This document shows positions 8,850-14,335 of a DNA stretch of 64,000 bases, in pieces. The stretch lies in the sequence record PV574017.1; one strand, 5' to 3'. Source of the stretch: Escherichia phage EcM-vB1. The notes below the pieces were generated by a model, which worked only from the letters and a program-made list of their open reading frames with translations, did no database searches and had not been told where the DNA came from. The first letter of the stretch is position 1, and the number at the start of each line of letters is the position of its first letter. Both the position numbers and the translations under genes were made by a program.

Positions 8850-9068
8850 ATGGAAATTAAAGTAGTTGATTATCCTAAATATGCAAATGCAAAGGACGTT
8901 AAAGGTGGTGATGTTTTCTCTTATGATAAACGTTTCTGGCTGATGCTAGAAGATAAAACCCCTGATGGTTTGTGTAAGGCTGCTAACTTGAGCAGTGGTT
9001 CTGTTGAAGTCTTCGGTCTATCAACCACTGTTATGCCACGACCTGATCTGTGTTTATCCCAAAAGTAA
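8850..9068 (+). CDS. small protein, GDVF...FW family
   Basis: ORF in track; GGDVFSYDKRFWLML...NLSSGSVEV. Confidence 0.45.
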   Translation: MEIKVVDYPKYANAKDVKGGDVFSYDKRFWLMLEDKTPDGLCKAANLSSGSVEVFGLSTTVMPRPDLCLSQK

Positions 9069-9180
9069 CGCCGACTTATAGCCCTTGTGTTTATCAGAGG
9101 GCTATGTGAGGGTGTTCCTCATTAACTTATTAATTCAGGCATATGCCACACCGCTAGGGAGAGCTTGCTCGAACATCCGG
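9065..9180 (+). other. conserved intergenic structured element, copy A
   Basis: shares GTAACGCC, a hairpin closing on GGGCTATGTGAG, GCTAGGGAGAG, a second small hairpin and CTCGAACATCCG with element at 14217-14335; both hairpins differ in sequence but keep pairing. Confidence 0.45.
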
Positions 9181-9426
9181 TGTTAGACTAAAACCTGTTA
9201 ATTTTCGAAAGACTTTCCGATATGTAGGGGTACGTATTGGTTTGGGATTCAGGAGACTTCCTAGGGGTAGGGAGTCTTCACCAGTTGGAATAAGAGATAG
9301 CTCTAGAACCTGAACTCTTAGGCAGAGAAGGTCGGCAATGAATACGCGGTCAGGGTTAGTCTACTGACTAGGGCTATCCCTTATATCAACTGGCAATAAT
9401 GCCTCCACTAACAAAGAGAGATAGGT

Positions 9427-9567
9427 ATGAAAGTATCAACCAAACGTATGAACCGCCCTGAACGTATGGATGCAGTAGCTAATGGTGCTCTGAAACTGGA
9501 AGGCTTTTGGATTCATGCAATGTCAGCCATCCGTAACAAGCAAGGTAATTGGACGTATAACAGTTAA
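9427..9567 (+). CDS. small basic protein (46 aa)
   Basis: ATG with GAGAGATAGG upstream, followed directly by terminator; below ORF-track size cutoff. Confidence 0.3.
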   Translation: MKVSTKRMNRPERMDAVANGALKLEGFWIHAMSAIRNKQGNWTYNS

Positions 9568-9574
9568 TAAATAA

Positions 9575-9605
9575 AAGGCTGCCTTCGGGTGGCCTTTGTT
9601 GTTTT
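9575..9605 (+). terminator. rho-independent terminator (UUCG loop)
   Basis: AAGGCTGCC-TTCG-GGTGGCCTT then TGTTGTTTT. Confidence 0.65.
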
Positions 9606-9648
9606 AATTAAGGGACAACTCTTACTTAAACTAACAAGAGGTGCTTAT

Positions 9649-10002
9649 ATGAGACGCATGGTTAAAGATTGGGTCACTAAATCAGGTCTTCGTGCTGTGA
9701 TTATGCACATGAACGACTCCCATTTTTGTGGATATGTAGAGCTACCAGACAGCTTAAAACATAAAAACTTCACCGGATATAACGGAAAGGAAGAGGTTTG
9801 TTATGTAAGTGTTCATGGTGGTGTCACATGGCAAGACACCCTTGAAGAGATGGGTGGTTTAGATACAATCGGATTTGATTGTGCCCATGCAGGTGATAAG
9901 ACACGGTTCAACCCTAACGGGATACCAAGAACAGAAGAGTTCTGCGTTAATGAATGCGAACAATTGGCTGAACAACTAAGAGATCTAGAATCAAATGTCT
10001 AA
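9649..10002 (+). CDS. hypothetical protein
   Basis: ATG 9649 with AAGAGGTG RBS; track ORF start at 9589 lies inside the terminator. Confidence 0.45.
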   Translation: MRRMVKDWVTKSGLRAVIMHMNDSHFCGYVELPDSLKHKNFTGYNGKEEVCYVSVHGGVTWQDTLEEMGGLDTIGFDCAHAGDKTRFNPNGIPRTEEFCVNECEQLAEQLRDLESNV

Positions 10003-10171
10003 GCAAATAATCAAACATACGCAAGCTGGTTACTCTTATGTCAACTCTCCTTGCTGCGGTGCTCGTATTAGTCTGGTTAAGGAAGAGGTTCGTATCGTTC
10101 AGCGTGGCGCTACTGTTGTTCGTTCATGCTGTGTCTGTGGTAATGACATTTTCATTAAAGGTAAAGTATGA
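9995..10171 (+). CDS. small zinc-ribbon-like protein (CC...CC.C)
   Basis: 58-aa ORF overlapping neighbours by 4-8 nt; cysteine pairs. Confidence 0.4.
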   Translation: MSKQIIKHTQAGYSYVNSPCCGARISLVKEEVRIVQRGATVVRSCCVCGNDIFIKGKV

Positions 10172-10397
10172 ATATCATTCTAGGCTCAACTAAAACAGAC
10201 CAAAAGACTTTCCGAGGTTTGAGCGTTGGATCAATCTTCTCACTTGATGAGTGCCCATCTTGGGACAAAAAAAAGTTCTACATGAAGATTGGGGAGGTTT
10301 TTCTGTAAATTTATCACATCCTGCCCATAAGCTTTCATTCGCTGGGCACGTTCCAGTTACAGAGTATAAAGCAACTCTTAAATTAGAGGAAATGTAA
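10168..10397 (+). CDS. small protein interrupted at an A8 run (10267-10274); probably one gene
   Basis: frame 1 ORF stops at 10308; the -1 frame is open from 10253 to the TAA at 10395-10397 that abuts the next start codon; fused product has the length of family paralogs. Confidence 0.35.
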
Positions 10398-10648
10398 TGA
10401 AAAACTTTCAAGCTGCACCAATAACTAAAGTGATCGAAGTTGATGGTGTAATGATGACTGTTCCTCTGAACACTCGTTACATTGCAATTGACAAGATGGG
10501 TTATGTATGGGCTTGGAAGATTAAGCCTAGCTATAACGCATTGTTTGATGAGTTTGTTTGTACTGGTACTTACAGTCCTACATTCTTAGGTTTATTTGGA
10601 GAGTTTGATGGTAAGTATAAGATCATCACACTCCCTGCTTGTGCTTGA
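10397..10648 (+). CDS. hypothetical protein
   Basis: ORF in track; start overlaps upstream stop. Confidence 0.45.
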   Translation: MKNFQAAPITKVIEVDGVMMTVPLNTRYIAIDKMGYVWAWKIKPSYNALFDEFVCTGTYSPTFLGLFGEFDGKYKIITLPACA

Positions 10649-10655
10649 GGTTAAT

Positions 10656-12481: not shown

Positions 12482-12793
12482 ATGAAAGCACGAAGAACTA
12501 TATGGACTCCGATGCAGATTGAAAATCTTCGGAGACTAATCAAAGAGTACTCGGTTCAAGAAGTTGCTCAGATTATGAATGTAACGGAGAATGCAGTTAA
12601 CACAGCTTGCACTAAATTCGGAATATCAAGAGCTTCAATACGAGTTAAATGGTCTAAAGAAGAAGACCAGTTCCTTATCCGTAATGCTGGGTTCATGTCC
12701 ATTCAGAGAATGGCTGACATGCTCGGTAGAAGTTATGCTGCTGTACAGAACAGGGCATGTATGCACCTTAACATTAGCCTCAAACTTAAATAG
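12482..12793 (+). CDS. putative DNA-binding protein (helix-turn-helix)
   Basis: GGAGGA RBS; segment YSVQEVAQIMNVTENAVNT resembles sigma70 region-4/HTH. Confidence 0.45.
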   Translation: MKARRTIWTPMQIENLRRLIKEYSVQEVAQIMNVTENAVNTACTKFGISRASIRVKWSKEEDQFLIRNAGFMSIQRMADMLGRSYAAVQNRACMHLNISLKLK

Positions 12794-12801
12794 GAATCAA
12801 G

Positions 12802-13029
12802 ATGAATTTTGAGCTAGTACCAAAAAGCAAAACACCCTCCAAGACTTTCTCTGACTTAGAGAATGGAGATGTTTTTCGTTTTACTGGTGACGATGTAGTC
12901 CCCAAATTCTGGATAAAAACAGGGAACATTCTGCAATGTGTGTTCGGAACTCTAAAGATATTTTCTTTCCGGTCCCTCTGTCCAATACTGTTGATCTGTT
13001 CGAATCTAAACTTATTATTCAGGGTAAGT
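12802..13029 (+). CDS. GDVF...FW family protein, probably frame-shifted near T run 12971-12974
   Basis: N-terminal GDVFRFTGDDVVPKFWIKTGN in track frame; family-like C-terminal PLSNTVDLFE only in alternate frame ending at TAA 13027-13029. Confidence 0.3.
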
Positions 13030-13070
13030 AAAATGAAGATCATCCCAAAGAAAAGGATAATACGGTACGA

Positions 13071-13277
13071 TTGGAAACAATCATTCCCGGAAACCCTTTC
13101 GTAGTTCAGAACGGAAGCGCTTCTCCTCAATATTACATGAGGGTTGAAAATGCTTCTGGTAACATCCGTATAGCCAGTGGTTGGGTTCCTGTGGTAAACC
13201 TTTCCACAGGTGTGTTATCTGTTAAAGGTCTTGACGATCAGGTAGAAATGATTCGTATGTCAGTGGTTCAGGAGTAG
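13071..13277 (+). CDS. small protein, GDVF family-like (TTG start)
   Basis: ORF in track; NLSTGVLSV motif. Confidence 0.35.
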   Translation: METIIPGNPFVVQNGSASPQYYMRVENASGNIRIASGWVPVVNLSTGVLSVKGLDDQVEMIRMSVVQE

Positions 13278-13531
13278 TGCATATGAGCATTATTAACATT
13301 AAAGTTAAAGACAAAGAGGAAAAAATCCTCCGTGTCAGAGATCTAAATATGTCAGATGTGTTCACTCTCCAAGAGTGCCAGAATCAAAAGGTTTATATGA
13401 TGACAGCTAAAAGCAGGGGTTGTCAACCTGCTGGAGCTGTTAACCTAGGCACTGGAGAACTACGTGTCATCTCTGGTGATATGGTTGTTGGTGAGAAGTA
13501 TATTAAGGCTGAAATCATCCTAACTTCGTAG
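13277..13531 (+). CDS. small protein, GDVF family
   Basis: ORF in track; SDVFTLQEC...NLGTGELRV. Confidence 0.45.
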   Translation: MHMSIINIKVKDKEEKILRVRDLNMSDVFTLQECQNQKVYMMTAKSRGCQPAGAVNLGTGELRVISGDMVVGEKYIKAEIILTS

Positions 13532-13762
13532 GAAAACAAATGAGACGTAAAGCATATTCTTATGACGATATGATTAACCAGAAAGGCTTCGGTCAACGAC
13601 AGCCTGATGGTTCAATTATCTGGTTTGTAAACGGACAGAAAAAGGTAGCTAAATAAGCCCTCTTCTCTCCTCCTTTTAGTACTATGACGCCTCTCTGTGG
13701 GCGGCCCAATTTGCGTAGGGAATTCCCTCTACGCAGCCATGACTTTTTAAGGAATTTCCCCT

Positions 13763-13996
13763 ATGTCTAAAGTAAGTGCAATTGATGCAATCCGTCAACC
13801 GTTCCAGTTCCAATCCAAATCAACCCAAACCTTCAGCGAACCTAAGCAAATTCGCTTGGGTGGCACAGAGAAAACTGTGTTCGATCTGGCTAAAAACAAG
13901 AGCGTTACCGTAGTTGATGGTGGCACTCTGGTTAACGTTTCTCATCGCATCCGCACTGGCAAAACTGCCAAAGATCGTGCTAAGAAAGGCGAGTAA
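13763..13996 (+). CDS. hypothetical small protein
   Basis: ORF in track, AAGGAA RBS; preceded by conserved 16-mer and hairpin. Confidence 0.5.
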   Translation: MSKVSAIDAIRQPFQFQSKSTQTFSEPKQIRLGGTEKTVFDLAKNKSVTVVDGGTLVNVSHRIRTGKTAKDRAKKGE

Positions 13997-14211
13997 TGAT
14001 AACACTTGTGTCGATCGTTTACAGAATACACTACCGTCTAGACAAAGGTAAAACCTATAAGTGCAAGAGTAAGACAGGCAATAGATGCTCTGTAGAAAAC
14101 AACTCTGGTCAATGGGTGGATGTACCTTGTTGTTGGTTCAGGAAAGACTTGACTAACAAAGAAATTGACGAAATCCTTAGTGATGGTTTTGTAAAATCAA
14201 GTGATTTTTAG
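13996..14211 (+). CDS. small Cys-rich protein
   Basis: ORF in track, start overlaps upstream stop. Confidence 0.4.
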   Translation: MITLVSIVYRIHYRLDKGKTYKCKSKTGNRCSVENNSGQWVDVPCCWFRKDLTNKEIDEILSDGFVKSSDF

Positions 14212-14216
14212 TTGTA

Positions 14217-14335
14217 GTAACGCCTATAGCCTTCTTCGGAGGGCTATGTGAGTTATTCTGACTCAACTAACCTAATCTTAATATATTTCCCGTATGGGGC
14301 CGATGCTAGGGAGAGGAACATTCCTCGAACATCCG
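14217..14335 (+). other. conserved intergenic structured element, copy B
   Basis: paralogous to 9065-9180; hairpins ATAGCC-TTCTTCGGA-GGGCTAT and GAGGA-ACAT-TCCTC. Confidence 0.45.

Follow-up and report, generated by a model that had tools for sequence, protein, structure and literature searches.

What are the two look-alike elements that stand between genes in the early region of Escherichia phage EcM-vB1: folded RNAs, DNA sites or the residue of a duplication? The question arises from a 64,000-nucleotide (nt) stretch of sequence record PV574017.1 (the window), in which the initial annotation had described two paralogous intergenic segments. Both lie on the + strand, element A at 9065–9190, between genes 113 and 112 in phiEco32 numbering, and element B at 14217–14346, between genes 91 and 90. 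Our analysis finds in A and B two paralogs of a structured RNA domain not described before, with a new junction domain at its core, and it is highly probable that both are functional, structured RNA domains within the early transcript.

The sequence blocks that the annotation reported as common to both elements are all where it placed them: GTAACGCC at 9065 and 14217, GGGCTATGTGAG at 9099 and 14241, GCTAGGGAGAG at 9153 and 14305, and CTCGAACATCCG at 9168 and 14324, each found exactly twice in the 64 kilobases (kb) with zero mismatches. A lone repeated 12-mer would be no surprise in 64 kb, but the exact blocks that A has in common with the rest of the window, when chained in collinear order, come to 45 nt, versus 16.8 on average and 25 at most in 100 dinucleotide-preserving shuffles. 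Its small hairpin is also borne out, as GAGC-UU-GCUC in A (better drawn as GAG-CUUG-CUC) versus GAGGA-ACAU-UCCUC in B, and the covariance-model search it had proposed returns exactly two copies in the window, A and B, and no third. What it overlooked are the 6-bp helix P2 around the GCTAGGGAGAG and CTCGAACATCCG blocks and two further hairpins, P1b and P1c; both units are moreover longer than it had supposed, A reaching to ~9283 and B to a terminator at 14403–14426.

Evidence for a fold comes from comparison. Copies were gathered from phage records, IMG/VR, JGI metagenomes and GTDB genomes by BLAST and an exact-pattern scan for the core, then confirmed by covariance model R1, and 28 distinct copies from Kuravirus, Suseptimavirus and 7-11-like phages were aligned by sequence anchors. 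Within that alignment 99.3% of the cells in five helices are paired, and double-sided changes occur in 9 of the 28 base pairs; the covariation score is 0.320 versus 0.125 for shuffled alignments (0 of 500 shuffles reach 0.320), and when the 3′ partners are slid by 1–3 columns pairing falls to 48% or less. Kuravirus and Suseptimavirus carry both copies, and the 7-11-like Salmonella phages (Moazamivirus, another family) a single B-type copy that occupies the syntenic position, between the phi32_92 homolog and an annotated terminator. Copy B is 73–80% identical in Salmonella phage 7-11, where the flanks are no longer alignable. The conservation in related phages whose absence had been named as fatal to the proposal is thus present in all three groups. 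The covariance model finds no copy in Cronobacter phage GAP52, which has the same genome plan.

A more distant and independent test is offered by L048, a divergent member (62.7 bits, rough E-value 1.6e-12) in which P1, P1b and P2 have wholly different sequence with their helices kept, and which retains P1c (CCC-AUAU-GGG), the internal loop and the base of P3 without change. It is the only new lineage to emerge from the pattern scans of IMG/VR, JGI metagenomes and GTDB with the covariance model, which otherwise gave many chance matches in coding DNA. Together, the 28-copy alignment and L048 strongly back the annotation's view that covarying hairpins here signify functional RNA structure. L048 is contig JBOFGJ010000684.1, phage-like and binned with a Flavobacterium metagenome-assembled genome; its host assignment is doubtful. 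The region has no BLAST match among phage records, and within the 8 kb of L048 the only thing in common with 7-11 is an Srd-like (anti-sigma) protein.

Might the two elements simply be neutral leftovers of a segmental duplication, with no function of their own? Both copies follow paralogous small-gene clusters, so a block duplication did occur. From one phage family to another, the RNA is nevertheless kept better than the genes on either side of it, its substitutions are compensatory, and, the covarying flank of P3 aside, the 14 loop nucleotides are invariant over 29 distinct copies. Contradicted by the covariation data, a neutral remnant is barely conceivable.

The strand of the fold can be read from its wobble pairs and its energy. 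U·G pairs are frequent in P1 and P2, where the opposite strand would have C·A mismatches, and folding gives z-scores of −2.2 and −1.7 for the + strand versus −1.4 and +0.2 for the − strand. Both observations argue for a sense-strand RNA (less likely a single-stranded DNA) and against a double-stranded DNA site.

At the center of the domain lies the internal loop CUAGGGN/RAACAUC, 13 of whose 14 positions are identical in the 28 sequences and L048. The positions that flank P3 covary in a non-Watson–Crick manner, as A/G (n = 18), C/A (n = 8) or A/A (n = 2) and never as C/G. Both main states occur within Kuravirus B and within the 7-11 group, Suseptimavirus A and L048 have C/A, and the state switches within at least four lineages. 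In terms of base-pair isostericity, an A·G/C·A/A·A series is expected of a sheared (trans Hoogsteen/sugar-edge) pair, and the P3-flanking pair is probably such a pair, stacked on P3. Conservation of the loop across phages with few common genes suggests recognition by a host molecule.

How are the two copies built? Along the + strand, both run through the same order of parts: a lead beginning GUAAC, hairpins P1 and P1b, an A/U-rich linker, hairpin P1c, and P2 followed by the loop and P3. In A, the 5′ lead GUAACGCCGACU (9065–9076) includes UAA at 9066–9068, the stop codon of a small upstream open reading frame (ORF; 8850–9068). P1 (9077–9106) pairs UAUAGCCCUU with GAGGGCUAUG over 10 base pairs (bp) around a 10-nt loop, and a possible lower stem beneath it, P1ext, would join AACGCC to GGUGUU at 9111–9116. 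P1ext and P1b (9108–9120, GAGG-GUGUU-CCUC) are mutually exclusive. P1c (9138–9147, GGC-AUAU-GCC) has 3 bp and a loop, RUAU, that every member keeps. The core (9148–9183) consists of P2 (ACACCG/CGGUGU), the 7 × 7 loop CUAGGGA/GAACAUC and P3 (GAG-CUUG-CUC). A conserved 3′ extension (9184–9283) then contains P5 (9217–9240, loop GGGG), the invariant UUUGGGAU (9241–9248) and P6 (9252–9279, loop UAGGGGUA). After a further hairpin, a closing helix seems to be formed with UUUGGGAU, likely with 9132–9136: its 5′ partners vary by lineage (AAUUC, AAUC, AUCUCAA) and complementarity, judged partly by eye, is kept. The G-rich loops of P5 and P6 echo the CUAGGGA of the core, and their stems covary between Kuravirus and Suseptimavirus.

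In B, the lead GUAACGCC (14217–14224) begins 5 nt past the stop codon (14209–14211) of the upstream ORF. P1 (14225–14248) reads UAUAGCCUUC-UUCG-GAGGGCUAUG, its possible P1ext pairs GUAAC with GUUAU at 14252–14256, and P1b (14250–14264) is GAGU-UAUUCUG-ACUC. A long closing helix, P4, has its 5′ strand at 14268–14288 (UAACCU..UCUUAA..AUAUUU) and its 3′ strand at 14342–14362 (AGAUAU..UUAAGA..AGGUUA); between these lie P1c (14289–14298, CCC-GUAU-GGG) and the core (14300–14339), with P2 CCGAUG/CGUCGG, the loop CUAGGGA/GAACAUC and P3 GAGGA-ACAU-UCCUC. P4 closes a three-way junction that encloses P1c and P2–P3. Its outer part is invariant, and its inner part shows 3 pairs with double changes and 88.7% pairing. 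Downstream follow an A/U-rich hairpin, AGAUAUU-GGG-UAAUAUCU (14368–14385), which is missing in phage 7-11, and a conserved intrinsic terminator (14394–14429), with a stem at 14403–14419, a run of six U's at 14421–14426 and complementary A/U tracts on either side. This terminator is kept after B in all three clades.

The pairing of the lead deserves separate comment. RNAalifold pairs it with the 3′ flank of P1, and in A a C-G to U-A change in Suseptimavirus accompanies this pairing; by eye, the L048 counterpart of the lower stem is UACC/GGUA. As the P1ext lower stem excludes P1b, which itself covaries, there are two alternative folds in every lineage. The minimum-free-energy fold of A instead pairs the lead with the 3′ flank of P2, an arrangement that we rejected, since a change in ECBP2 breaks that lead pairing and compensates P2.

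Does the domain belong to a family already described? Among 4227 Rfam models (release 15), none matches A or B, either across the whole window at gathering thresholds or between 8800 and 14700 with E-values up to 10 and permissive filters. The only family over threshold in the window is a transfer RNA (tRNA), tRNA-Arg, at 10829–10901. It was annotated likewise in phiEco32, has a TCT anticodon (72.4 bits, 10829–10904) and lies between the two elements. A tRNA, a transfer-messenger RNA or a tRNA-like element was rejected as an explanation of A and B, because ARAGORN and the Rfam tRNA model return only the tRNA-Arg at 10829; by eye only, the loop strands resemble D-loop and T-loop sequences. Kink-turn, sarcin–ricin, UAA/GAN and 11-nt receptor motifs were also compared with the loop by eye, and none fits it. 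Neither element is mentioned in the papers on transcription in phiEco32-like phages and 7-11 that were consulted, and an earlier mention elsewhere may exist.

If A and B are RNAs, what transcribes them? BLAST gives 99.8% identity between the window and Escherichia phage EcP-vB, and 95–99% identity to phiEco32 over both element regions; by its sequence, the window is thus a member of the phiEco32 group (Kuravirus, Gordonclarkvirinae). Early transcription runs along the window's + strand, as the elements do. In phages of the phiEco32 type the early genes are transcribed by sigma-70 polymerase of the host, starting from promoters at the end of the genome, and the phage's own sigma factor, gp36, relies on tAATGTAtA, a motif found upstream of genes 6, 13, 26, 40, 58 and 68 only. 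Strong sigma-70 matches in the window are at 522, 2471 and 3104, placing the early promoters 6–11 kb from the elements. Each element adjoins the stop codon of a small early gene, which lies at the element's start or at most 5 nt before it; A, B, 7-11 and ECBP2 all have this interval of 0–5 nt between stop codon and lead, and the stop codon falls within GUAAC itself in A, in ECBP2 B and in phage K1E. This adjacency leaves no room for a promoter of the element's own.

The initial annotation had offered three candidates for the elements, a small RNA, a processing site and a terminator–promoter module, of which the first two survive as the best readings and the third finds no support. The elements have no terminator within them, that of B lying 63 nt downstream, beyond the end the annotation gave it, and neither a conserved sigma-70 promoter nor a gp36 motif is found in or next to A or B. 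For sigma-70, B alone has a candidate, a weak 9/12 match within it (CTGACT-18-TATATT) that 7-11 does not keep. The gp36 motif was sought in and beside both units and is not present there; the 7-11 late promoter, GTAAtg-N16-aCTA, was set aside by eye as a poor fit to the GUAAC lead. The processing site is kept for its first hairpin, built like the RNase III sites of T7, and the small RNA for the conserved intrinsic terminator into which copy B leads.

In that first hairpin, P1 and its lower stem give a 10-bp upper stem, an internal loop of 3–4 nt and a lower stem of 5–6 bp, directly after a stop codon. When the five early RNase III sites of T7 (R0.3, R0.5, R1, R1.1 and R1.3) were folded, with cleavage positions placed as in the T7 map, they showed the same build. 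A and B are thus bipartite helices of about two turns, with a lower stem that competes with P1b, and they are placed like the T7 sites, as hairpins that follow stop codons between the cistrons of an early polycistronic RNA made by the host polymerase. The expected consequence would also be of the T7 type, a 3′ hairpin that protects the upstream messenger RNA (mRNA). Only over their first 50–60 nt do A and B resemble the T7 sites; they are not homologous in sequence to these (AAGGUCRCUC...GAGUGGCCUUUAUGAU), and the T7 sites, unlike A and B, have no junction domain attached. A parallel for the first module comes from K1E (SP6 group), in which the gap between early genes 5 and 6 reads GUAAC-UAGCC-UAUAGCC...GGGCUAUG-UGA, with the stop codon of gene 5 within GUAAC. 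This module (L051, 200–245; NC_007637, 3088–3132) was found through a weak BLAST match; the first module is thus one that the T7 supergroup has as well. Similar weak matches occur in many Vectrevirus and Klebsiella podophages.

We favor, with somewhat less than even confidence, an explanation in which each element combines a punctuation module with a junction domain that binds a host factor, and in which B additionally yields a terminator-ended RNA that may pair with the host nrdD transcript. A and B would be transcribed within a long early transcript by host RNA polymerase from the sigma-70 promoters near the genome end. A host RNase III-type enzyme would then cut at the bipartite hairpin formed by P1 and the GUAAC lower stem. 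The cut would give the upstream mRNA a 3′ hairpin that protects it and would free a downstream RNA headed by the junction domain (P1c, P2, the CUAGGGN/RAACAUC loop and P3), which most likely would bind a conserved host factor. In the case of B, the released RNA would end at the intrinsic terminator, giving a discrete product of ~170–215 nt whose 3′ end is laid out like that of an Hfq-type small RNA, and its closing-helix arm might act in trans on the leader of host nrdD mRNA. The fold, its strand, conservation and position, and the complementarity to nrdD are observations; cleavage, an effect on RNA stability, binding of a factor and any action in trans are inferences.

Several points weigh against this explanation. 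A role in processing and stability alone leaves the invariant loop nucleotides unexplained; the RNase III-type fold is one of two alternatives, as its lower stem competes with the covarying P1b; the P1 sequence is not conserved in L048; and copy A lacks both a terminator of its own and an Escherichia coli match, so that a small-RNA role suits B better. The alignment behind the pair counts was, in addition, made with the structure in mind and so favors that structure.

The terminators of the early operon bring a second explanation into view. Strong intrinsic-terminator-like hairpins stand on the + strand at 4978–5012, 6305–6330, 6335–6360, 9574–9605 and 12403–12432, and no promoter-like site follows any of them, which implies leaky termination or some other mechanism of read-through. 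The phi32_112 homolog (9427–9567) begins ~235 nt past A and is followed by the terminator at 9574–9597; the phi32_90 homolog, with its ribosome binding site, has its start codon at 14446, after the terminator that follows B, and because no promoter comes after this 14403 terminator, the early genes downstream appear to rely on read-through. The domain might accordingly act as does the put RNA of phage HK022, binding the host RNA polymerase as it is transcribed and promoting processive antitermination at 14403 (for B) and at 9574 (for A). HK022 put is ~70 nt long, folds as two stem-loops (a V shape with a triplex in stem I), lies <300 nt from its promoter and suppresses termination through the β′ zinc-binding domain of the transcribing polymerase. 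Like putL and putR, A and B are a pair of paralogous structured RNAs, encoded in cis ahead of terminators in an early phage operon that E. coli RNA polymerase transcribes, and their paired regions covary from one copy to the other. The association of B with its terminator is kept in three clades, the genes past 14446 appear to need read-through, and the invariant loop nucleotides fit recognition of a host enzyme common to these phages. An antitermination strategy has also been called likely for 7-11, and yet to be defined (PMC8948821).

Other observations fit put poorly. A and B have no likeness to its two-stem fold, having five helices and a closing helix, or five or six helices in 125–215 nt, where put has two stem-loops in ~70 nt. 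Their distance of 6–11 kb from the early promoters (sigma-70 matches at 522, 2471 and 3104 versus elements at 9065 and 14217) contrasts with <300 nt for put. The strong terminators of the + strand at 4978, 6305 and 6335 precede A and must be passed without it, the terminator after A is 390 nt off and past a gene, and GAP52, with the same genome plan, does without the element. On balance, a put-like role is unlikely.

The same terminator after B could, alternatively, be the output of a riboswitch or attenuator, in which the junction domain would serve as an aptamer for a metabolite or a protein, set termination at 14403 and thereby control the amidoligase/glutamine amidotransferase cassette after B. 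A conserved domain with invariant junction and loop nucleotides and freely varying, covarying stems is typical of aptamers and is what we find; downstream of B come first a terminator and next a ribosome binding site; and P1ext and P1b form mutually exclusive folds in every lineage. A terminator that competes with the aptamer through a conserved alternative pairing is not seen in the alignment: the best antiterminator candidate has 4–5 bp by eye, and the spacer between P2 and the terminator varies, from ~47 to 72 nt by eye, and includes an optional hairpin. Since copy A and L048 are not followed by a terminator, and the genes after A and B are unrelated, we judge a riboswitch improbable.

What might the RNA that ends at this terminator do? 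A match between B and its host gives one indication. Of 5426 complete E. coli genomes, 5423 have one site that matches positions 14347–14388 (36 of 42 nt; E-value 5e-3 against 28 gigabases). The site (L077, 401–442) lies in the nrdD–treC intergenic region, 14–55 nt upstream of the start codon of nrdD, and is oriented such that B RNA is complementary to the transcript of nrdD, the anaerobic ribonucleotide reductase gene, next to its Shine–Dalgarno sequence. Counted by eye within this match, 29 of the 31 nt at 14347–14377 are complementary to the E. coli nrdD leader from −14 to −44. The sequence upstream of the match has a TATAAT and a pair of NrdR-box-like palindromes, along with an FNR-like site ~140 nt ahead of the start codon; from these and from the layout of the nrdDG promoter, the match should lie inside a long 5′ leader.

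The complementarity is shared beyond E. coli. In the Salmonella and Klebsiella leaders, retrieved through NrdD homologs (L079 and L080, ~20–60 nt upstream of nrdD), as in that of E. coli, CTGTGGATAACCTGTTCT is conserved immediately before the Shine–Dalgarno sequence, and its complement is present in every B-type copy, with a core of 19–20 nt and a perfect 19-mer in the 7-11-like contig L027. Three phage substitutions in the core, one in Kuravirus and two in 7-11, all leave wobble pairs (U·G or G·U, by eye), which weakly favors pairing between two RNAs over a shared DNA site. Kuravirus and E. coli have further complementarity (AUAUUGGG/CCCAAUUU) for which 7-11 and Salmonella show no counterpart. 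For copy A no match to E. coli DNA turned up, and the duplexes that RNAduplex predicts between B and the nrdD leader are dominated by long loops, which makes their energies uninformative. Neither the window nor the 7-11 locus encodes NrdD or NrdG; GAP52 encodes both and lacks the element, a single anecdotal correlation.

The same stretch offers a case for a DNA-level element, be it a DnaA-binding site, a replication origin or an operator, in which the repeats would be protein sites rather than RNA. A perfect DnaA-box-like TTATCCACA occurs at 14360, within 14347–14377, as the only perfect + strand site of the early region, and the host nrdD leader has the same box with the same flanks. Such an element would not account for compensatory changes in five to six helices or for G·U pairs on the + strand only; copy A lacks a DnaA-like box, the context of the box is mostly the 3′ strand of P4, whose inner part covaries, and the phage changes in the shared 20-mer are wobble-compatible as RNA and mismatches to a DNA site. 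A DNA-level role is accordingly very unlikely. A DnaA box was likewise dismissed as the reason for the conserved AGGUUAUCCACAG, which is mostly the 3′ strand of P4. The probability that falls outside our favored explanation and the four alternatives weighed here is left to mechanisms that we have not listed.

Small RNAs derived from 3′ untranslated regions and dependent on Hfq, of which CpxQ and SroC are enterobacterial examples, offer a close comparison for B, and for B only. Like these, B is co-transcribed with an upstream gene, begins just past a stop codon, ends in an intrinsic terminator with a tail of six U's behind an A/U-rich stretch (UUUUUGUAUUUAAAG), in three clades, and has a conserved seed-like stretch complementary to an mRNA leader at the Shine–Dalgarno sequence, near the ribosome binding site, as far as sequence can tell. 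Unlike these, B is far more structured, with the complementary stretch largely sequestered in P4, and it is encoded by a phage, with a host gene as its candidate target. It is possible, though less likely than not, that B is a phage regulatory RNA cut from the early transcript, made up of the junction domain and an antisense arm that would pair with the conserved CUGUGGAUAACCUGUUCUU of the enterobacterial nrdD leader, beside the Shine–Dalgarno sequence. If so, a phage without an anaerobic ribonucleotide reductase of its own would reprogram the host enzyme during infection in the gut, and the CUAGGGN/RAACAUC loop, which A also has, would be a recognition site for a host partner, be it RNA polymerase, a ribonuclease or a chaperone. 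Functional complementarity to nrdD would also make B a rare virulent-phage RNA that acts on a specific host metabolic mRNA.

Beyond this single target, phiEco32 and 7-11 are model phages for takeover by sigma factors, and the processing of their early transcripts of 25–40 kb, as well as the passage of internal terminators, has had no explanation so far. A concrete candidate for either is this conserved RNA domain, which sits at fixed boundaries within the early operon. Absent from Rfam, the domain has an unusually clear signature in its invariant 7 × 7 loop with one non-Watson–Crick covariation that looks isosteric, and it should be attractive for structural work.

Two features of the neighborhood may be added. 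Past its phi32_112 homolog, phage 7-11 has a 700-nt unannotated gap (L011, 7073–7783) with the T-arm-like sequences GGTTCGAATCC and GGTTCGACTCC; ARAGORN finds no tRNA there, and degenerate tRNAs or another RNA are possible occupants. Second, clusters of paralogous small early ORFs of ~70–85 amino acids, phrog_6570-like and with the motif GDVF...LSTG, lie upstream of both RNA copies, at 8039–9068 and 12802–13531 of the window, and recur at 9129–9380 and 14779–15003 of L012 and at 18797–19024 of the 7-11 locus (L011). We rejected a functional tie between the RNA and an upstream small protein, as this multi-copy family is spread over the early region and adjacency may be incidental. The window ORF that adjoins B (13996–14211) is unrelated to the family, and in ECBP2 and 7-11 a family member directly adjoins the element.

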